The translations under genes and the position numbers were made by a program. DNA of 57,067 bases, taken from the NCBI GenBank assembly GCA_043818555.1, contig JBDRFP010000012.1:1-57067 (forward strand), given 5' to 3'. Source of the DNA: a bacterium (GTDB lineage: Bacteria > Patescibacteriota > Patescibacteriia > UBA9934). Shown here one piece after another: positions 8,317-56,891 of the stretch. Positions within the stretch are counted from its first letter, which is position 1; every line of letters begins with the position of its first letter. The notes below the pieces were generated by a model, which saw nothing but the letters and a program-made list of their open reading frames with translations, had not been told where the DNA came from and searched no databases.

Positions 8317-9177
8317 TTAAGCTCTTTGTTCCTCAGGTTCAGCGCGATCCCCCTCAACAACCTCGGCACACAGCTCCACAATCTCTTGCGCGCGACTTTC
8401 CGATACGCCAACTCGGCTCGACAGCTCAGCAGGATCAATATTTACAACTTCGCGACATAACATTAGTCCCTGCTCAGCAAAAGCTTCCAGTTCTGAATCT
8501 GACAAAGTATCCAGCACGGTAACAGGGTAGAGAGTCATGTAGTCAACCATGCCTGCAAACGGCCGCTCGTCAGGTTCGTTCCAGCCAATCATGTGAATGC
8601 CTTTGCAGACTCCGAATTGGAGAGCGCGGTCGCTAAACTGGGCATTCGTAACAATCCATGGCTCGTCAAAATGCAGACATTTTCCAACAGCTGCGCCGTC
8701 AACTAAATCAAGAAACCGCGCCCAAGTTGCCATGGTATCTTTTAAATTCACGCTGTCTTGAAAGCTGTTTCGAAATTTTGCTTCAATAAAAAATCTCCTC
8801 CCATCTTTCTCTGCGATTACATCGACTTCATGCCGTACACACGAGCCTTCGAGTTCATCGGGCGGGATGTAGGCGTTGTATTTGTAGGCGTTCAAGATCG
8901 ACGCAACATACTTTTCAAAGTTGAATCCTGCCGGGCCGAGTTTGAGGATAGCGGCTCGCAGGTTGTAGCGCGAGGAAATACTTTTATTTTTTTTGCTAAG
9001 CTCAGCGCGAACCATGCTGTAGATTTCGCCGGTTGTCATGCCTTCTTTAATCTGCGATTCGGCCCGGGATACCACCTGGTCGACCAAATGTTTGCTTGCG
9101 CCTGTACGCAAAATACTTCGACGAAGTTTTTCGCCGTCATATTCAGCCCTGCTACCGTCAGACTTGATGATTTGCAT
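8317..9177 (-). CDS. ATP-cone domain plus Mrr-like PD-(D/E)xK restriction endonuclease domain protein
   Basis: IIKSDGSRAEYDGEKLRRSI ATP cone; FEKYVASIL...EVDVIAEK...IEAK nuclease motifs; VTNAQFS. Confidence 0.8.
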   Translation of the reverse strand: MQIIKSDGSRAEYDGEKLRRSILRTGASKHLVDQVVSRAESQIKEGMTTGEIYSMVRAELSKKNKSISSRYNLRAAILKLGPAGFNFEKYVASILNAYKYNAYIPPDELEGSCVRHEVDVIAEKDGRRFFIEAKFRNSFQDSVNLKDTMATWARFLDLVDGAAVGKCLHFDEPWIVTNAQFSDRALQFGVCKGIHMIGWNEPDERPFAGMVDYMTLYPVTVLDTLSDSELEAFAEQGLMLCREVVNIDPAELSSRVGVSESRAQEIVELCAEVVEGDRAEPEEQRA

Positions 9178-9440
9178 ACGGTGGAATTATAGCATACTGC
9201 AGGATCGAGGGGGTTAACTAATCGCCTTAAATAGATCGTACAGGACCCATAGGACCTATCGCGATTACGATGCAGCGACAACAAAAAAACAAATATTTTA
9301 TATCCCGAACAGGGAAGTGCAACTATCTTACTTCCTACTATCTACTAACTACTTACTGCGCTTCCAGGTATTACTTGACAAGCGTCGTAAAATGTGATAT
9401 TCTCTCCCGGGTTTGTTTAACGCAATCAACCGGAGGAAAG

Positions 9441-9614
9441 TTGGAACATCCCGCCACAGAGGAAGTTCGATGCACGCGCTGCAACGCCGCAATCGGTGCT
9501 GATTCAGAAGACGGCCTCTGCCCTGCTTGCCGCAAGGCACAGGATTTGATTAGCAAGCTGTCAGACCGGCCCCCTGCCTTTCAGGTGATCTTGTTCAGCG
9601 ATCCGAACAACTGA
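9441..9614 (+). CDS. Small Zn-ribbon orphan protein
   Basis: TTGACA promoter, GGAGG SD, TTG start, CTRC...CPAC, then a palindromic terminator. Confidence 0.55.
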   Translation: MEHPATEEVRCTRCNAAIGADSEDGLCPACRKAQDLISKLSDRPPAFQVILFSDPNN

Positions 9615-9629
9615 TCCCGATCGCCCTCG

Positions 9630-9670
9630 CGCCCGCTTAAGGTCCGTACGGACCTTAAGCGGGCGTTTTT
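9630..9670 (+). terminator. Intrinsic terminator formed by a 36-bp perfect palindrome
   Basis: CGCCCGCTTAAGGTCCGTACGGACCTTAAGCGGGCG followed by a T-run. Confidence 0.8.
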
Positions 9671-9774
9671 AGGTATTTCTTAATGTTTTCGCATTTCAGA
9701 ATTGACAAAAAGGCGGTTTTATGGTAGCTTTGATTTCTTAAATCGACCTTTCAACAACCCAAAAGGAAAAAGCC

Positions 9775-10281
9775 ATGAACCGACTGTTTCTGATTCTCGC
9801 TGCCCTGCTATTCTCGTGTGGCAACTCGTCGACCGAGAATGCGCCTGCGCCCGCCTACGAACGCGAACCATGCTCGTACCGACTCTGGGCGCTCAAGAGC
9901 GCGCTCGAAACGATCGACGCCTCTATCGAACTGGCCGAGCAGGCGCCTGCCGGAGAACTGGCCGAGGAAACGCTTATTGGCGCGCTCAACAGACGTCGCG
10001 CGATGCGAGAAGCTCAATACCGTGTCCTTAGCGGCGCAACTATGTGCGGAATGGATCAAACTGCCAACCTATACGTCCTAGCTGCGTGTAGGGCTGAGTA
10101 CTACAATGCGTTCGACATGGCTTTCGAGCTACTCGATACAACCCCAGAAGTAATCGAATTCTACAAAGAATTCTCGAGCCGTGGCAATGCATGCGAAGCC
10201 GCTCTTGAAATGGGATTGTTTGGCCCTGATGAAGACGCCAAGCCCGACTGCGAAGATCCGCCACTCAACAAAGAGATATAA
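9775..10281 (+). CDS. Orphan lipoprotein
   Basis: MNRLFLILAALLFSC lipobox; own TTGACA promoter and SD. Confidence 0.7.
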   Translation: MNRLFLILAALLFSCGNSSTENAPAPAYEREPCSYRLWALKSALETIDASIELAEQAPAGELAEETLIGALNRRRAMREAQYRVLSGATMCGMDQTANLYVLAACRAEYYNAFDMAFELLDTTPEVIEFYKEFSSRGNACEAALEMGLFGPDEDAKPDCEDPPLNKEI

Positions 10282-10556
10282 GTCGGCCTGGGCAACGAGC
10301 CGTTCGAGAAACCGGCCAATCATCCGACACCGGCTCCATAAGAGTAGTCGCTACCCCTACGTGCAAGCGTGGGGGTTTCAATTTGTTATAAGAACGAGAG
10401 TTTCAAATGTTTCAAAGGTCGCAAAGGTTTCAAAGGTCCGTGGCTCACGAACTAGTCCCTAGTCCCTAAATCCTAGTCCTTATCGCTCAACTTGACACCC
10501 CAGCCAATCATTGCTTAAATGACCTCACAACCGTTCATCTTCACAAAGGAGGCATC

Positions 10557-10871
10557 GTGTTCCAAGAGAAACCAGAAGCAAAGTTGGTGATCAGTTTTCC
10601 GGCTCCTCTGTCGAGAGCCGACATCGGCGTGGATGAACACGTCGAACTGATCTCTAGGCCCGGGTGGTCGCTGGCGATCGAGGGGAATTCAACGTGGAAG
10701 GCTCGCATCAAGATCGCGTTCGATGACTGGCGTGAGGACCTAGTAGTCATCCGCGACGGAATCAACATGTTCCCTGCTCCCTGCGACAACGCATGGGCCT
10801 ACCCTGCCGATCCTGGCCACTGGACCTTCGAATTCGGCAACTACAAGCTTCAACTCGAGGTCACCGAGTGA
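10557..10871 (+). CDS. Hypothetical protein
   Basis: AAGGAGG SD with GTG start, TTGACA promoter, downstream hairpin. Confidence 0.7.
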   Translation: MFQEKPEAKLVISFPAPLSRADIGVDEHVELISRPGWSLAIEGNSTWKARIKIAFDDWREDLVVIRDGINMFPAPCDNAWAYPADPGHWTFEFGNYKLQLEVTE

Positions 10872-10968
10872 CCCCAATTTCCGGCACTTAGTGTCGGAAA
10901 TTTGTATTTTCACCAACTTTAGCAAAACTCCTCTCCGGGAGAGGAGTATCCTCACCGGGAGAGGAGGA

Positions 10969-12141
10969 TTATTGACTAATTAGGCTACCGAGCAACTCAC
11001 GACCTTGCTCGGTAGCGTCGTCAAAGCCCAACGTAGACTTCTCTAAAATATACTCGCTAACAACATCAATCGCCGCCTCAGGATCGTCACCCGCAATCTC
11101 CTCGACATAGCGTTGTACAAATTCAAAATGAAATTCCTCGCGCAATTCGTCGTCCTCCACCTGCAGCCAAATTCGCTTCTTATAAAGCTCTGAGATCGAA
11201 TCGTCGCCTGCCAAACGCGCCTGAACAAACACTTCCAGCTCGGACTGGATTTCCTCCAGTGACCGCCCGGAAAAATCGCCTTCGCCCAAAAGCGGCGCAA
11301 TATAATCCATTAACTCCTTAATTTGAGATTCGGCATTTTCAACATCAAAATGAATATCCACAGTTTCGTAATGAGGTTCCATGGTTAAAACAATGTCGTC
11401 AGGCCGCTCATCGATCCCTGAGTCAATAAACCCCTGCATCAATGTCCGCGCGGTTGCAAAATCCATATCCGTGTCAACCATCTTAAACGCCAGGTACTGC
11501 AACGGAATTGACATGTCACTTTCAAATCGCCCAAGCTGGCTTATAATCATGTCCTTAATGAACACAGCCTGATTATGCGTTCGCTGAGGCTCGCCGATCT
11601 GGTAACTCTGCCTATGCCGAAGCCATTCAAGCGTCTCAGTAGTCGGCATATCGAACAGACGCGCCAGGCCAAGAACCTGCGAAAACCCAACAGTCGCAAC
11701 ATAATCAGCCTTAACGCCAACAATCTTTTCAATCTCGCCGATGCCATAATCCAGCCCGGCGTATGCACATGCGTTCGCCAGATAATACTCGCCGACCTCA
11801 TAAGTGCCCGGTGGAATGTAGGCATACGTGCCGCGCGGTACAGAGGTGACATGGACGGTCCAGGCTTCGATATCGAGCGTAAACATGTGAATAGCGTCGC
11901 AGTGTGGCTCACTTTCGCTTTTGCGCGCGTCAAGCCCCAGCAACAAAATATTAATTTCATTCTCATTGCCAAAATTCGGGCTTCCCTCTTTAATTAAAAC
12001 CGCCTCGCGATCTTCAAGCACCAAGTCGACCACTGCGGCGACCGCCTCGTCGCTTGACTCTCCGCCCATTTGCGCAAACGCAAATACACCGGCCAAACCG
12101 ATTCCAATAACTATCAATGCGATTGTTAACGCTCGGATCAT
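10969..12141 (-). CDS. LytR-CpsA-Psr (LCP) family protein
   Basis: N-terminal TM, INILLLGLDAR...DAI...VTSVPR, R.HNQA motifs. Confidence 0.85.
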   Translation of the reverse strand: MIRALTIALIVIGIGLAGVFAFAQMGGESSDEAVAAVVDLVLEDREAVLIKEGSPNFGNENEINILLLGLDARKSESEPHCDAIHMFTLDIEAWTVHVTSVPRGTYAYIPPGTYEVGEYYLANACAYAGLDYGIGEIEKIVGVKADYVATVGFSQVLGLARLFDMPTTETLEWLRHRQSYQIGEPQRTHNQAVFIKDMIISQLGRFESDMSIPLQYLAFKMVDTDMDFATARTLMQGFIDSGIDERPDDIVLTMEPHYETVDIHFDVENAESQIKELMDYIAPLLGEGDFSGRSLEEIQSELEVFVQARLAGDDSISELYKKRIWLQVEDDELREEFHFEFVQRYVEEIAGDDPEAAIDVVSEYILEKSTLGFDDATEQGRELLGSLISQ

Positions 12142-13930: not shown

Positions 13931-16900
13931 CTACCCTCCCAAAATCTCAACATCTGCTTCCCGTAGCCAGCCAAACTCGTCGGCACTTATTTTTATCTTA
14001 TGCCATCCGTCTGATACTTCATAGTAGCCGAAGGCTTCGCCGACATTAAGACTGGCAACTATCTCTGCGTCTTCAGAGGGTTCGCTAAACGCATATGCAT
14101 ACCCTGCAGGCAAATCACGAATCTGTAAAATCCCTTCGGCAATACTCACGCCCGAGTCAATCCTGGTTACCGACGGCTCAGCAGGCTCTACCGGAGCTTC
14201 CACAACAGTTTCATCAGCCGTTTCACCAACCGCCTCATCGACTACGCCGGCCGTGCCTTCCGCTTCAGGCGCTACCTGAACACTTGTCTCGAGCACCGAC
14301 TCTTCCAAAATCCTCTCCGCTGAAAACTCTTCCAAAATTACATCAAGCTGTTTGTACGACAACCGCACCATTACCACAAGGACCACAACCACCACCAGAA
14401 CTGCGGTTCCAATTATGATTATTGAGATCTTTCTTGTTCGAATTTGATTCTTCAGCCACACTTGGAACTCAGTCTCGGCCATTTGAAACGCGCCCTTCTT
14501 GCCCGCAGCTTTCTTCATCTTCTTTTCCAGGGCGCCCTGACGGAACCAGAGGAAGCTCAGTACCAAACCCAGCAACAGGGCAATGCCAACAACTCCGGCA
14601 AGTAATCGGAGAATTCGGATTGCGTTATCTTGAATTAATTGCGTGGCAGAAGTAAGAATTAGGCTCTCAAGGCTGACAAATTTCTGTCTTGCGCTGTCAA
14701 GTCTTTCCAAATTGCGCCTGTATGACAAAATGTGATGTTGCGGAGTTGTGTAGCCCTTTTCCTGCTCAGCCAATACAAGATCGACCGTTAGCGACACATC
14801 GCCTGCGAGTAATACGCCCTGCGACTCAAAGTCGGTGTTCTTCAATAGAGCAACCATTTGTGCGGCTCTTAGCTTTAAATCATTAAGATCTTCAAGCGAA
14901 AACCTCCAAATATCCTCAACCTCCAAATTGCGCACAAACAATTCTCCTGCTCCGATTTGGATGTCCCCAAACGCGTAATACCTTCCTGCTGAGCTTGAAT
15001 AGGCCAGCTGCAAACCATCGTTCATTAACACGCTTTCCGGCGTAACTTCGTCCGGCAAAAATGCCTGGAAACGCACAGTGTGTTCTGAATCAAGCGGGTT
15101 GGCTACCAGGAAGTCCAGCGATACAGAGCCAAACTTCATATAGCTTTCAACAACCGGCCTGGAAGCCTTGTTTTCAATCAGCCGTCTTATTAAAGATGCC
15201 AGCGCGCGAAAATCAGCAAGCTTTCGCCTTACGCTAAACTGGCTTGTGAAATCCACAGCGTCAATATTAAACAGGTCTTCAAAAGTAAATATATTCAACT
15301 CACTTACCCCAAGTTGAGCCAAAAGTCCCTTAAGCCTTACCGACTCGGCTTCAAAAATAGCTTTCAACTCCGCGCGATCTTCTTCGGTCGCGTTATTTAA
15401 ATTAGCTACCAGCGCGGCTGCAGCATCCAAAGAATGGCCTGAATCCAGCAGTTCCAAGTAAAGCTCTGCTGCCAATTCTTCTCCGATTTGCGGCACAACA
15501 TCTTCTTCGGCAAGCGTTGGCACAACCACAATAAGGTCTTGCAAGACAATAGTGAACTTATCGCCAAATCTTGGCGCAGCAGTAAAAGCGTCGCCTACGG
15601 TAATTCGGTGGGTGTTTCCGTCATAGGTGATGATTATACGCGCCTGCCCGGCCAAAGGGCCTGAGATAAATGTGATTTCGCCACCAACATAAGCGTCGCT
15701 TACCGGACTTGACAGGTTTGTTGTGAAGGATGTCGCTGATCCGAAATACTCATCAACCATGCCCTCAACAGTTAGGAACGGCCCAATCTCTTCTTCTGTC
15801 GCGGACTCAACATCCTCAACTTCGCTAATTAATTTCTCGCCGTCTTCCAATTCTTCAAGAGTGTTTGCAACAACCCTGGCTTCAGAATCAACGCAAAGAT
15901 GATCCAGCGCGTCAACAATCGAGTACTTCAAGTCGCCGCGCGCGGTTTGCGAATCGGCCCACAAAAGCGCGTCCCTGCTCTGGTCCAAGTAGTAGAACCT
16001 GGCCCACACCTCGTGGCTCCAAAGCGCGTCTCCGCCCACATATGAAATGATAAAGTTCTCGCAGTCGAGCTGTGTAACATCAAGAACAACATCGTTATAA
16101 TCAAAATCATCTCCCTTGTCTTCGAAATTAATCCGAGTCTTTGTGGAGCTTAGCTGTTCCGTGGTGGTAAAATTGGTATTTGTGTGTCGCTCATTGCCAT
16201 CAGGATTCACAATAAAGATGTCGTAGAGCATTAAGCTACACGCTACCTTGCATGTTCCTGTTTTTGCCAAAGGCTCGCTTACCGGAGTAGTATCTGCCGG
16301 ACAGAAGTTGCTTGCCGCAACAGAATCGAGCGTAATGCTGCGACCAAACCCGATTTGCGAGTCGTGCCAAATTTCAACATCGGAAACCTCAACACCTTCG
16401 TAGAATGACTTCACTCTTATCTGATGGTGCCAGCTCGCGTCGCCTCCGACAATTTCAAACACCACGCTCTTACAATCGTACTGGTTTATGTCGATGATTA
16501 CATCGTTATAGTCAAAATCCAGTCCCTTGTCTTCAAATCCAACGCGCGTTTTCTGGTATCCAATTGCATTTGATTTTGTCCAAATGCTATTCATGTGCCG
16601 CTCAGTACCATCAGGATTGATAATGTAAAGGTCGAAATCAATGTTGCCGCATTGCACCCTGCACTCCGGCGGCTCTTCGATTATTTCCGGCTCTTCAGGA
16701 TCCTCAATGTCTTCAGGATCTTCGCATTGGTTTGCTTCGTCCAAGTAAACCTGATCAAACACTGTGGACGACATATTGCCGGTAGAGCTGCGGAACTTGG
16801 CAAAAATCGTTTTCCAACCGTCTCCGCTTGCTAAAGTCCACCCCTTCTGCGCGGTTCCGGAAAATGCCTCCCAGTTGTTTGTGGTAAACAGCGAATCGCC

Positions 16901-53170: not shown

Positions 53171-54352
53171 TCAGCACTTTAAGGCAACGCTTTCCATTGC
53201 CAGTTTTGCATTTACATTCTGTTTAATTGCCAACTCTGCTGCGTTGATCGACTTGAGCGTTTCGGCCCAGGCCTGCGATGTTCGCGAGCTGGAAATTTGG
53301 CCTATTCGATCTACTGTACTTGACAAGCTAATCAGATTTTCCGAACCCGCTGATGCAAGCAGACAGTCGTGTACTACTAATCTGAGCCTTTGCAAGTCGA
53401 CAATGACATCAGCAGTCGTTCGGTCTTTGTCTTTTGACAGCTTTTCGATCGTACCAAACTTGTCTGCAAGTGGTGACTCAAGAAAGTTAAGCGTCTCATT
53501 GATTCGACCCCGAGCCTGGTCGCGCGTTTCTTTGTCAATCAAGCTCATTGCAATGCCCGGCCGGCCTGCAGCCAGCCCCGCCAGTTCGTGCGCAAGGTCT
53601 TTTGTTAAGTTTTGCGACGATAGAAAGCTGCAAATTTTTTCACGCTCTACTAAAGTGAATCGAATATGGACCGTGCGCGATGTTATGGTTGATCGTAGCT
53701 CAGAGGCGTCTGATGTGATTAAGATTATCAGCGTGTCGCCACTAGGTTCTTCCAAAGTTTTTAAAAGTGCATTCTGCGCTGCAATCGTCATTGCCTCTGC
53801 GTCTTCGATGATTGCGATCTTTTTGCTTTTACCAAAAGAAAACATTGACAAACGCTCTCTTAAATTTCGAATATCATCAACTGAAATTGATCCTTTTTCT
53901 GACGGCTTCACGATCGTGATGTCCGGGTTCGCTGACAATACCTGATCGCTAACTGCAAAATCACACTTTCCCTTCTCTTCCCCTACCACACCCTTTCCGA
54001 CTTTCCCGATCGCCAACACTCCTGCCTCGTTGGCAAACTCCTCTTTCCCAACTCCGACTTCGTTGGCCAACCCTTCTTTCCCCATCTCCTCCCTTCCCCC
54101 CCCATCTCCTCCCTTTCTGGCCTTCTCGATCACCAGCCCCCCTTCTTCCCCCCTCTCTTCCCCTCTCTGCCCATTTCCTCCCTTTTCGACCTTCAACGCT
54201 CCCCTTACAAATTCCCTGGCCACCGCCCCCTTGCCAACACCCTTTGGTCCGGAAAAACAATAAGCATGCGCAAGCGTCCCTCTTTCAACAACTCGTGCTA
54301 AATATTCAGTTTGCGCCTCGTGGCCAATAATCGACTTGAAATCAAGGGTCAT
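53171..54352 (-). CDS. holB: DNA polymerase III delta' subunit with a low-complexity insertion
   Basis: IIGH, HAYCFSGPKGVGK, ISVDDIR, AQNALLKTLEEP, TITSR. Confidence 0.88.
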   Translation of the reverse strand: MTLDFKSIIGHEAQTEYLARVVERGTLAHAYCFSGPKGVGKGAVAREFVRGALKVEKGGNGQRGEERGEEGGLVIEKARKGGDGGGREEMGKEGLANEVGVGKEEFANEAGVLAIGKVGKGVVGEEKGKCDFAVSDQVLSANPDITIVKPSEKGSISVDDIRNLRERLSMFSFGKSKKIAIIEDAEAMTIAAQNALLKTLEEPSGDTLIILITSDASELRSTITSRTVHIRFTLVEREKICSFLSSQNLTKDLAHELAGLAAGRPGIAMSLIDKETRDQARGRINETLNFLESPLADKFGTIEKLSKDKDRTTADVIVDLQRLRLVVHDCLLASAGSENLISLSSTVDRIGQISSSRTSQAWAETLKSINAAELAIKQNVNAKLAMESVALKC

Positions 54353-54353
54353 A

Positions 54354-54490
54354 CCCGGTAGCACAACTTCGAATGATGCCTTCGAAATACGTGCGGCATC
54401 AAAATTCTAGCGTTAAACACAATAATTAATGATTTGGAAATTTTCTGCTCGGCATAACATACACTTCAATATCGAAGTTGTACTACCGGG
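54354..54490. mobile_element. MITE-like inverted-repeat element at the holB start codon
   Basis: CCCGGTAGCACAACTTCGA...TCGAAGTTGTACTACCGGG flanked on both sides by CATA. Confidence 0.65.
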
Positions 54491-54876
54491 CATAACTATA
54501 CAATTATAGCATAAAAACAAGAGTAGACAGTAGTCAGTAGACAGTAGTCAGTAGATCGCGCAATAAACCCCGTCAAATCAACTATAAATCGTGCATTGCC
54601 CCCTGCACCCCGTTAACCCCCTCGATCCTTTGCCAACCCCTTTTCAACCTTTTCTCCATGTTTGTCGGTCTGTAAGTCTGTAACGAAATTCATTTCATAA
54701 CCTCTCTTAACCTCCTCCCGGCCGAAGGCCGGGTAACCTCCTCGTTTGTTGGAATAACCTCTTCGCCCCTCGAATTCCCTCTTTCCCTGTCCAAAAACAC
54801 TGAACAAAACCTCTTCAAAATCCCACTTTTCCACTAAAACTAGCCAAAAACTACTAAATCGACGATAAGCCCTGAC

Positions 54877-54905
54877 TTGACAAAACCTAGAATTTGTGTT
54901 ATATT
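54877..54905 (+). promoter_or_regulatory. Sigma70 promoter
   Basis: TTGACA-17-TATATT with an extended -10 TG. Confidence 0.7.
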
Positions 54906-55011
54906 TCTCCGTTCGATTAAAGACCGAGTAAGGTCAAAAATCGATAAAAATTCGCTCCGGCACGGTGCCGGCGCGATGGTTCGATTCATTCAACAAAAAA
55001 AGGAGGCAGAA

Positions 55012-56094
55012 ATGCCGAACGGAAATGCTGACCAAAAACTGCGCGCCATCGAGGAAGAAGCCAGCGATTTTCGCGAGTGGGTGCTCTACGGTCGGACCGA
55101 GAAGTCCGACGGTCTGCGCTACATGATGCGCATGGCGGTCGGAGCTCTCCTCGAGGAGAGCTTCATCAAGACTCGCGACTCGCTGGACGTGGCTGCGATC
55201 CTGGTGGGCCATGTGGCCGAGCTGAACCTGCGCAAGGCGCGGTGGCTCGCCGACCTCATGGTCGAAGGCGAGCTGAACCGCAAGGTTCCGCACCCCGGTG
55301 TGGCAGCCCTGGCCGAAGTGGCCGATGGGCTGTCGATGGGCCGCCACAGGGTGCCGGCCATCGACATCGATCGCGACGGCGTGCTCGAGAGCCTGAGCGG
55401 TGCGGCCGAAAGGCTGCTCGCGCTCGCTCGAGAGAACAAGTTCATCGACCACGCCGCAATCGAGGCCAAGTTCAAGAAGGCCGGGTTGCTGAGCGAGGAC
55501 GGCGGCGAGGAGAAGCGCGAGGACGGCGGCGGCAAGGGCGACGACAAGGACGACAAAAAGTCCGAGTTCGTCGCTCGAGCTGAGCACGCTCTGCGGGAAG
55601 TCGCGGGCGGGCTCTCCACCGAGGAGGACGAAGTCGCTTGGCGACTGTTCCCCGAAGGCGAACGCCCGGAGGGGCTGAGACACGCCGCCAAGCGGCTGCT
55701 CAGGCGCGCGCTCATGCGCCCGACCAAGCGCATGACCGCGCTCGGCGCCTACACCCACCTCAACTCCGCCGAGCTCGTCTCGGCCGAGGACGCGGACAAG
55801 ATCCGCGCCAAGGTGCTGGCCAAGGCCAAGGAAGAAGCCGAGCAGGCTGCCGAACCCCAGACGTTCAAGGACGTCCAGGATCAGGCCACCGAAGCTGCCC
55901 CTGAGACCGTTGACGGTGCGTCTGACGCGCCCGAGGTCGAGGAGAAGGCCGGAGCTGAGGCGCTGGAGGAGGTTGAAGAGCCTCCCGAGGCCGAACAGGC
56001 CCGGGTAGAGGCTGAAAAGCCCGCAGCCAGCGATGACGATTCCGCTGTGGTAGTCGACCTGAGCGCGCTCAAGGCGCGCTTCAGCGGCAAGTAG
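55012..56094 (+). CDS. Orphan helical protein with an acidic low-complexity tail
   Basis: AAGGAGG SD, very strong GC3 bias, no recognised motif. Confidence 0.8.
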   Translation: MPNGNADQKLRAIEEEASDFREWVLYGRTEKSDGLRYMMRMAVGALLEESFIKTRDSLDVAAILVGHVAELNLRKARWLADLMVEGELNRKVPHPGVAALAEVADGLSMGRHRVPAIDIDRDGVLESLSGAAERLLALARENKFIDHAAIEAKFKKAGLLSEDGGEEKREDGGGKGDDKDDKKSEFVARAEHALREVAGGLSTEEDEVAWRLFPEGERPEGLRHAAKRLLRRALMRPTKRMTALGAYTHLNSAELVSAEDADKIRAKVLAKAKEEAEQAAEPQTFKDVQDQATEAAPETVDGASDAPEVEEKAGAEALEEVEEPPEAEQARVEAEKPAASDDDSAVVVDLSALKARFSGK

Positions 56095-56103
56095 ACGCAC
56101 GTT

Positions 56104-56666
56104 CTACGTGCAGGATCCAGATAGCAATATCTGTGGTCCTGCACGTAGGTCATTTACAGGTCATGAATGCTTGTCCTGATCTGTAATGTGACTTCATTAA
56201 AACTTGTAGTTAATTCGTTCTATATTTGCCCAGATGCTAGGCGCAACGAGCACCGAAGTAAGCCGTACTAATTCGTACGGCGAACGAGGAGCGCAGTCGC
56301 AACAACGCAGATGGGTGAATATTGGACGAATTAACTCACAGCAACCTGGAGGGGAGAGACTATATAGTTCGCACGGATTGGAGGAGAATCCAGCGACTAT
56401 CGGTATTCAAGTGCATGGACTTGGCATAGCTAACTCCATCAACAGATCGTTCAAAATGTGCTTAGATGCTAGGCGCGGGGAAAACGGCGAGTAGGCGTAC
56501 TTAAACGTACGGTGACGAACCGCAGGGGCCCTGCAACAACGCAGATGAGTGCATTTTGGACGGTCTGCCTGCACACACCCGAATGCCATTAGCGCATATC
56601 ATCTTCGGACGATCACTGCGCTTCGCCCTGAGTTTACTCAAGGCAACTCTTCTCCAGTTTGCTGTG
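56104..56666 (+). ncRNA. Putative large structured ncRNA with a duplicated domain
   Basis: Near-continuous nested helices, GCAA and cUUCGg tetraloops, two covarying copies of a ~127-nt domain. Confidence 0.65.
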
Positions 56667-56711
56667 AAAACAGTTACTTTCAACCTAAGCAAAATACAAG
56701 GAGGACTCAAA

Positions 56712-56891
56712 ATGAGTTCGGAAGACAGTGGATGGGCAGTGTTCGGCAAAATCGTGCTCGTCGCCGGCGTACTGGCCGGCGCAATCTGGGGCGTCAGCTC
56801 CGGAGTGTCATCAGTACACCAACGCGGCTACAACCGAGGCGTCTACGCCGCCAAGGGCGAGATCACCACGATCACGCCCAGGGCCGAGTAG
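56712..56891 (+). CDS. Small single-TM protein
   Basis: AAGGAGG SD; MSSEDSGWAVFGKIVLVAGVLAGAIWG...RGYNRGV. Confidence 0.65.
   Translation: MSSEDSGWAVFGKIVLVAGVLAGAIWGVSSGVSSVHQRGYNRGVYAAKGEITTITPRAE

Follow-up and report, generated by a model that had tools for sequence, protein, structure and literature searches.

Organization of the locus

The window is the whole stretch of DNA analysed, 57,067 nucleotides, from a genome of ~1.0 Mb in 37 contigs (G000, the source genome). Its lineage is Candidatus Uhrbacteria-like, a large, uncultured group with genomes of ~1 Mb. Near the right end of the window, 618 bases (56095-56712) lead from the stop codon of a high-GC ORF to the next start codon. The features in and around this gap are listed in Table 1. 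The GC content of the upstream gene is 64-66% (0.664) compared with ~0.47 nearby, and its product matched no Pfam family. Since this product is 30% identical over 276 amino acids (E = 6e-18) to that of the ORF at the same place in a relative of the same genus (G001), we regard it as a real, fast-evolving protein. The gene is headed by a promoter-like site, which on sequence grounds is a possible start of a transcript reaching the RNA region. Small direct repeats lie upstream of that site (54522-54549 and 54614-54764); AGTAGACAGTAGTC occurs as a tandem pair, and words resembling TAACCTCCTC occur four times. A DNA polymerase III delta′-like protein is encoded further upstream on the minus strand (53171-54364); it has 397 residues versus 314-325 in relatives and contains a low-complexity insert of ~80 residues rich in Gly, Glu and Lys. 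On the other side of the gap, the small ORF gave only a sub-threshold Pfam match (18.8 bits, cut-off 25). The transposase fragment at the contig end makes it probable that an insertion sequence directly beyond the RNA locus broke the assembly.

Two hairpins follow the upstream stop codon. The first, which lies outside the conserved core described below, is likely an mRNA 3′ stabiliser or a processing site; analogous hairpins come after the upstream ORFs in G001, G005, G012 and G024. The second is shared with the same-genus relative only (75% identity over 57 nt to G001).

Table 1. Features at the right end of the window, with the observations on which each assignment is based.
Feature	Coordinates	Strand	Basis and description
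Promoter-like site	54877..54905	+	TTGACA, 17 nt, TATATT preceded by TG; 11/12 consensus matches (consensus match only)
High-GC orphan gene upstream	55012..56094	+	ORF listed from 54877; likely start ATG 55012
GC-rich hairpin, GCAA loop	56104..56148	+	12-nt perfect arms; directly after stop codon; without U tract
Second hairpin	56149..56192	+	Predicted fold
Repeat E, copy A	56208..56336	+	Model R2 match 56211-56333, 115.1 bits; nhmmer; fold
Core (putative sRNA), 5′ part	56337..56442	+	P0/P1 (CACAGCAA.CUGGAG), purine run GGGGAGAG, P2, P3 5′ strand, AAGUGC, P4 hairpin
Repeat E, copy A′	56443..56567	+	R2 match, 121.7 bits; between P4 hairpin and core GCAC strand
Core (putative sRNA), 3′ part	56568..56666	+	GCACACACCCGAAUGCC (P3 3′ strand), P5, P6, P1/P0 3′ strands (CUCCAG.UUGCUGUG)
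Small ORF, 59 aa, hydrophobic centre	56712..56891	+	GGAGG 8 nt before ATG; orphan
Integrase-core (rve_3) transposase, C-terminal fragment, contig end	56919..57065	−	PF13683, 28.2 bits vs cut-off 26.5

The gap is densely structured

The folding of the gap was compared with that of 20 dinucleotide shuffles. The plus strand folds at −257 kcal/mol versus −179.5 ± 7.8 kcal/mol for the shuffles (z = −9.92), none of which folded as well; the minus strand gave a z-score of −7.90. An earlier note on this DNA had described the gap as strongly folded, and the elements that it listed are indeed there. They include the GCAA-capped hairpin, a closing helix CACAGCAA.CTGGAG/CTCCAG.TTGCTGTG (56337-56351/56652-56666) and, in both sequence and fold, a GGTATTC/GAATGCC helix, a GTGC/GCAC helix and a cUUCGg hairpin. 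The two domains that it had designated A and A′ are related as stated, with a 30-nt block that is 90% identical and outer stems that differ through compensatory changes.

A search of the whole window with Rfam 15 at gathering scores returned four tRNAs only. The Rfam check proposed earlier came out as anticipated, with no match inside 56104-56666 even at E ≤ 10. There was likewise no match to the Rfam 15 models of ROOL, GOLLD, OLE, raiA, 6S, SRP or riboswitches. RNase P RNA and tmRNA, both discounted from the start, are located elsewhere in the genome (C19:58844-59316, 112 bits, and C11:18954-19342, 100.9 bits, respectively). Given the fold z-scores, the presence of the helices and the lack of an Rfam match, the claim of dense unannotated structure at 56104-56666 stands.

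A core domain conserved in relatives

Partial BLAST matches led us to the multibranch domain of this region in four more genera beyond G001. This domain, hereafter the core, measures ~205 nt in the window, where it is split into two pieces by A′. Among 30 full-length cores, the length is 156-220 nt in relatives and 330 nt in the source genome owing to A′. We built a covariance model (R1) of 92 positions from six sequences of the best-conserved part of the core; its runs on more than 40 genomes used strict filters and were of limited sensitivity. Of the 68 family genomes, 39 had exactly one R1 match each, and these represent 14 of the 15 genera; the match in the window spans 56400-56622 with 84 bits. 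Among 151 genomes sampled from the order, 54 had core matches, one of them with two (by family, 37/64 in f1 and, in three other families, 13/65 in f2, 1/5 in f5 and 2/9 in f6). Under this six-seed, strictly filtered model, 29 of the 68 family genomes and 97 of the 151 order genomes were without a match, which may be due to the limited sensitivity of the model or to true absence.

The consensus fold of the 30 cores comprises 36 pairs in five helices around a multi-way junction. The two ends of the core pair in P0/P1, and the junction bears P2, a P3/P4 arm, P5 and an optional P6. The hairpin loops are of the UUCG type or 3-5 nt long rather than GNRA; in the window, P2 has a GGAGGAG loop and P5 reads GCAUAUC..UUCG..GAUCACUGC. 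Paired cells make up 93.1% of the alignment at these positions, compared with 31-43% when the partners were slid by 1-3 columns (n = 30). The covariation score was 0.603 against 0.08-0.13 in the slid controls, and none of 500 column shuffles scored as high. Double changes were seen at 28 of the 36 pairs. One G.U pair is kept in 29 of the 30 sequences, which fixes the strand of the core.

The 5′ strand of P1 contains GGAGG in 25 of the 30 cores and the 3′ strand contains UCACCUCC in 12; a second GGAGG or GAGGA is found in the P2 region of 15. The 16S tail of the source genome is GGATCACCTCCTTTCT, with the same letters as the UCACCUCC-type P1 3′ strand, while its own P1 3′ strand, CUCUUCUCCAG, is without a 16S-like word. 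A conserved small ORF following GGAGG-N6-AUG in the core was considered and dropped, as it is absent from both G000 and G001. Integrase-type integration at the core was rejected after att-like repeats of the core ends were looked for within ~10 kb in five genomes and none was found. A phage or plasmid origin was also rejected, since blastn gave no match among phages or plasmids; a loose core pattern did match 25 viral contigs, but R1 confirmed none of them and we regard these as chance matches.

The surroundings of the core follow a recurrent plan. In its simplest setting, the core has a divergent delta′-like gene on one side and a convergent TrmB-family regulator gene on the other. The delta′-type gene of DNA polymerase III (PF13177) lies in front of the core in 15 of the 30 loci and the TrmB-family gene beside the core in 20, with a glycosyltransferase behind the latter in 12. 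A promoter-like TTGACA/TAnnnT was seen by eye, unscored, ~60-70 nt upstream of the core in several genomes. In about half of the core genomes, including the source genome, ORFs of 60-71% GC stand between the core and these neighbors on one or both sides, while the genomes themselves have 40-50% GC overall. Examples of such short islands of 60-72% GC are window 54877-56094, L025 at ~9000-11600 and L029 at ~9000-10500. These high-GC ORFs are mostly unrelated to each other and appear as fast-evolving orphans; among the non-syntenic flanking ORFs tested, 29 of 30 lacked a Pfam family.

The arrangement of the core with A and A′ varies even within the genus. The G001 locus has the same type of upstream ORF, the same two hairpins and a copy of A directly followed by an A′-like copy; the uninterrupted core comes only after these and is followed by a hairpin and a T run. 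A′ lies inside the core in the source genome only, and the other 29 aligned cores are without an insert at that site. Three further genomes (G010, G009 and G036) have the core and no match at all to the repeat to which A and A′ belong.

A and A′ are copies of a dispersed structured repeat

BLAST of the region against the source genome detected four further partial copies of domain A on other contigs, and against relatives it detected multiple copies of an A-type repeat in 17 of 60 genomes. This repeat, which we call E, is an irregular hairpin of ~125 nt, and all copies share its fold. The outer stem of ~20-25 bp is variable in sequence and always paired, the unpaired stretches CUAGGCGC/GCAACAACGCAGAUG are conserved, and so is the apical stem CCGUAC ... 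GUACGG. From copy to copy the termini differ and covary, whereas the unpaired nucleotides of the interior are conserved throughout the order. AGUA opposite GAA beneath the apical stem had earlier been read as a loop E/sarcin-ricin motif. The letters AGUA/GAA are present in five of six aligned copies from the source genome, but only 6 of the 18 copies in the seed alignment have AGUA, 5 of them from the source genome, and most others have AGGA or other variants.

A covariance model of E (R2) was built from the 18 copies of seed alignment A4. A search of metagenomes with such a model of A/A′ had been proposed in the earlier note; in the genomes scanned here E proved widespread, but as a dispersed repeat. 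R2 detected E in 61 of the 68 family genomes, with 0-46 copies each and ~940 matches in all, 9 of them in the source genome and 26 in G001. At E ≤ 1e-6 it had matches in 74 of the 101 order genomes sampled, and six of the seven families were represented among them. A and A′ are the two best-scoring copies (115 and 122 bits). Copy number differs sharply even within one genus (0, 0, 1, 20, 27 and 29 in genus g9), and several near-complete genomes have no copy. Of 51 copies, 49 fold more stably on the forward than on the reverse strand (−59.5 versus −48.7 kcal/mol), and the forward strand contains more G.U pairs (4.1 versus 2.3).

Copies of E lie between genes, and several were seen at contig ends. 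Relative to the genes on either side they are oriented nearly at random, with 13, 11, 10 and 8 copies in the four classes and another 9 (of 51) at locus edges. Groups of three or four copies interleaved with tRNA genes occur at G035:C1:33345-34067, G014:C9:17131-17905 and G014:C1:15175-16070; in some of these groups the copies alternate in orientation, each pointing at a tRNA end. At G014:C3:27564-28728 (L075/L084), E is found in sense orientation in two successive spacers between co-directional ORFs of 495, 299 and 151+ aa, the middle one starting 3 nt after an E. From its N-terminus we take the middle ORF to encode ATP synthase gamma and the spacers to be those of an atp operon. At G000:C34 ~14880-14950 (L005), the 3′ end of an E is directly followed by a palindromic word pair, TTATCCACAGGATCTGTGGATA and then TGTGGGATAA, which appears DnaA-box-like; this place may be an origin or a dnaA promoter region.

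The 3′ end of E adjoins the ends of genes

The position of E relative to its neighbors is strongly polar. In G014 (38 copies), the median distance between the 3′ end and its neighboring feature is 3 nt, and in 30 of 37 copies it does not exceed 12 nt; for the 5′ end the median is 105 nt, and 5 of 37 copies are as close. The features at these 30 3′ ends were nine ORF stops, nine ORF starts, six tRNA 3′ ends, five tRNA 5′ ends and one other E. Similar values were obtained for 48 copies from other genomes, with a median of 3 nt and 31 of 47 within 12 nt at the 3′ end and a median of 72.5 nt and 7 of 46 at the 5′ end. A tRNA is adjoined by 18 of 51 copies, in every case (18/18) by the 3′ end of E; 12 of these lie on the same strand just before the tRNA 5′ end and 6 are tail to tail with the tRNA at its 3′ end.

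The core itself is among the features so adjoined. In the window, copy A stops 3 nt short of the core's 5′ end, and the A′ copy of G001 ends at the first base of the core. In G061 one E points at each end of the core, and in G074 an E faces its 3′ end. An E also faces the 23S 3′ end in the source genome and apparently, judging from its flank, in G040. We found no target motif at E sites. The 37 copies of G014 share no 5′ flank, and a longer element upstream of E was therefore rejected. The 3′ flanks other than tRNAs are no more structured than the 5′ flanks (Wilcoxon p = 0.84), thus revealing no structured target after the 3′ end of E. An outward promoter in the 3′ end of E was discarded as well, as reading the sequences gave no consistent −35/−10.

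We examined whether E has the traits of a MITE, short for miniature inverted-repeat transposable element. It is short, non-autonomous and present as many dispersed hairpin copies, as a MITE would be. It lacks the conserved terminal inverted repeats of a parent insertion sequence, and no parent element was found. No target-site duplication is evident in the flanks of 51 copies, whose ends are not defined to the base. One candidate case of filled and empty sites was seen, namely the core with A′ inside in G000 and without it there in G001 and 28 other genomes. No partner transposase was identified for E. ORFs of the Y1_Tnp family (PF01797) with ~200-310 aa are present in 49 of the 68 family genomes, up to 9 per genome, but a Y1 (HUH) transposase as the mobiliser of E was rejected, since G014 has 44 E copies and no Y1_Tnp while G090 has 9 Y1_Tnp and no copies. 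One Y1_Tnp ORF (G061:C3:167602-167922) lies ~600 nt from a core and its E copies.

Searches for 6S and SRP components

We explored the possibility that the core is a known RNA beyond recognition by its Rfam model. Uninterrupted cores in 20 other genomes gave no Rfam match at E ≤ 1, and the E insert therefore did not hide a known family here. 6S RNA (RF00013) had no match anywhere in the source genome. 6S RNA has the shape of a long rod, with a single large central bubble between its closing and terminal helices; the five-helix multi-way junction of the core, along with the lack of an RF00013 match, argues against this identity. SRP RNA is marked by conserved internal loops and by a helix 8 that a GNRA loop caps. 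The SRP RNA model RF00169 and the Ffh M domain (PF02978) were each found in none of 21 genomes (G000 and 20 order relatives), and RF01854 and the SRP-type GTPase (PF00448) each gave no match in the one genome searched. No ORF of G000 combines DTAGR with GxxGxGK[TS][TS]. The controls of the SRP searches matched in 12-14 of 14 known genomes. Because the Ffh M and SRP GTPase domains were not found and the core lacks a GNRA-capped arm resembling helix 8, its identity as an SRP RNA is unlikely. We located nothing in the literature on a missing signal recognition particle system in such lineages.

Interpretation of the locus

We consider it probable that 56104-56666 is a composite locus, consisting of a core small RNA and two copies of repeat E, and not one large RNA. 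The earlier note had proposed an undescribed ~560-nt noncoding RNA in the size range of ROOL/OLE, or a tandem aptamer. On the first of these readings the whole stretch would be one large ornate RNA, with A and A′ as functional parts, for example in oligomerisation or as tandem aptamers. That a structured RNA without an Rfam 15 match is present was correct; its size and unity were not, and in this sense the structure is real and undescribed but the unit was misjudged. A single large RNA would account for the folding of the whole stretch, for the lack of a terminator between its parts in the source genome and for the nesting of A′ within the multibranch domain with its helices unbroken. Yet the conserved unit measures only ~165-220 nt, and A and A′ turn out not to be an internal duplication but two of the nine local copies of a repeat with hundreds of matches in the family. 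A′ is also not an integral part of the domain, which is conserved in other genomes without it; the same-genus relative carries its A′ outside the core, and some genomes have the core and no E. No ROOL, GOLLD or OLE match speaks for such an RNA either, and judged from these sequence comparisons it is a most improbable reading that appears largely refuted already. Tandem riboswitch aptamers, which would be a related pair within one leader, ahead of a regulated gene and in a constant gene context, were rejected on similar grounds. The repeat adjoins tRNAs, rRNA and both ends of ORFs, its orientation to neighboring genes is near random, and its copy number ranges from none to 46 per genome.

We propose that the core is a stand-alone, single-copy gene for a structured small RNA, new to Rfam and conserved across an order. 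As to its role, we lean slightly toward a stable, protein-bound or regulatory RNA that stands alone, rather than a leader. An alternative role as a cis-acting leader of the next gene, be it riboswitch-like or a translational operator, draws on the co-directional, mostly high-GC ORF that in about half of the 30 loci, in place of a terminator, starts within ~60-150 nt downstream of the core, on the 59-aa ORF with its GGAGG that begins 46 nt after the core in the source genome, and on the pairing of GGAGG with CCUCC in P1. In the simplest and most widespread arrangement, however, the next gene is the convergent TrmB-like one, and a terminator-like hairpin with a T run follows the core in 12 of the 30 loci. 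Moreover, the downstream ORFs are unrelated orphans and hence fit a ligand-specific switch poorly, which makes a leader role rather improbable, although the core may act in this way in the genomes with such a co-directional ORF. Less likely still is that the core is a very divergent housekeeping RNA of a known kind. Since no 6S was found in the source genome, 6S is the main candidate, and a single-copy, order-wide RNA of ~170-200 nt with its own terminator would suit it; its junction with four or five separate hairpins and the 20 intact cores without an Rfam match do not. The pairing of Shine-Dalgarno-like and anti-Shine-Dalgarno-like sequences in P1 (GGAGG/CCUCC) may point to a connection with the ribosome or with the start sites of translation. 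This link is doubtful, because the P1 3′ strand of the source genome itself is CUCUUCUCCAG and a minority of cores carry UCACCUCC. An RNA conserved across genera and families in bacteria with so few genes likely does something basic.

As for the expression of the putative small RNA in the source genome, no terminator was found before the core there. Together with the promoter-like site at 54877-54905, this makes it likely that the core is co-transcribed with the upstream high-GC gene. It would then be freed by processing of the co-transcript, and the long, nearly perfect stems of E would be plausible substrates of a double-strand RNase for that release. Copy A′ protrudes from the core as an extra arm and leaves the conserved core nucleotides intact.

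For E itself, our somewhat preferred reading is a palindromic element like ERIC and bcr1, mobile now or in the past, that maintains its fold on one strand. Its near-random orientation and the swings in copy number within a genus fit such an element, the 3′ end of which would dock at gene termini. Three properties are misfits to a plain MITE: the conserved inner loops with variable ends across the order, the strand-asymmetric fold and the strong polarity. The order-wide conservation of the unpaired center in particular is out of the ordinary for a MITE and agrees with a function in the host. We therefore give real, if lesser, weight to the possibility that E is a structured module of RNA, or of single-strand DNA, that the host maintains at gene boundaries and a conserved factor recognises. 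Near tRNAs, rRNA, the core small RNA and ORFs, it might serve as a stalk for processing, protect ends or act as an insulator. Conserved unpaired nucleotides amid covarying stems, the asymmetry between strands, the precise docking of the 3′ end at the termini of stable RNAs and ORFs, and the sense copies in the presumed atp operon spacers of G014 would all be expected of a host module. Copy numbers that fall to zero even in near-complete genomes and differ so widely within genus g9 would not, nor would the near-random orientation, owing to which many copies would be transcribed antisense. A joint reading takes E as an order-wide, host-kept marker of gene termini and the core as a new housekeeping RNA, possibly touching the ribosome by way of its GGAGG/CCUCC helix, in a lineage in which SRP was not found. 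We hold this combination to be rather unlikely; in it, E would arise by 3′-end-first insertion or have an RNA-end-defining function of a kind undescribed in bacteria.

Comparison with known systems

Two undescribed RNA-level features of one uncultured lineage emerge from this single locus. The literature searched, supplements aside, contained nothing about structured RNAs or repeats in Candidate Phyla Radiation bacteria, and as far as Rfam 15 and the literature within that scope show, the core and E are both new. The core can now be searched for with a covariance model. The locus also illustrates that dispersed structured repeats can disguise a small RNA gene as a giant ornate RNA and can break assemblies. 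In being intergenic and highly structured, and in the size of the 560-nt composite, it resembles ROOL, GOLLD and OLE. These RNAs are linked to prophages. The locus differs from them in that it has no Rfam match, a conserved unit of only ~165-220 nt and no phage or plasmid link that we could find.

The Rickettsia palindromic elements (RPE) and the Dictyostelium TRE are selfish elements whose places of residence, for example in RNA genes or beside tRNAs, cause little damage. E is similar to these in that 18 of 51 copies adjoin a tRNA and copy A′ sits within the core small RNA. RPEs insert in frame in protein genes and TREs are retrotransposons with their own genes; E differs, as no such machinery was identified here. 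E is also reminiscent of REP and REPIN elements and their RAYT (Y1) partners, as a hairpin repeat that persists in a lineage where Y1_Tnp genes are common. REP and REPIN elements are recognised on one strand. REPs are 20-40 bp in length according to the part of PMC3733652 consulted. E, by contrast, is ~125 nt long, and the presence of Y1_Tnp does not track its copy number.

The closest resemblance is to ERIC (~127 bp) and the Bacillus element bcr1 (~155 bp), with which E shares a similar size, dispersed intergenic copies and a long hairpin. In the sections of PMC3184786 drawn on here, bcr1 is described as transcribed, with compensatory base-pair changes that keep its fold at the RNA level and a copy number that differs between close relatives, and the defining marks of MITEs are given as target-site duplications together with terminal inverted repeats that are conserved. 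Compared with ERIC and bcr1 as those sections present them, E is distinct in that its termini vary and covary, its inner unpaired nucleotides are conserved, no duplication is seen and its distribution is order-wide. The usual MITE pattern is thus reversed in E, with the inside conserved and the ends covarying. The polarity of its 3′ end toward gene termini is likewise undescribed for ERIC and bcr1 in those sections of PMC3184786. This polarity would amount to a new targeting rule if it reflects an insertion mechanism, and to a new kind of gene-boundary element if it reflects a function.
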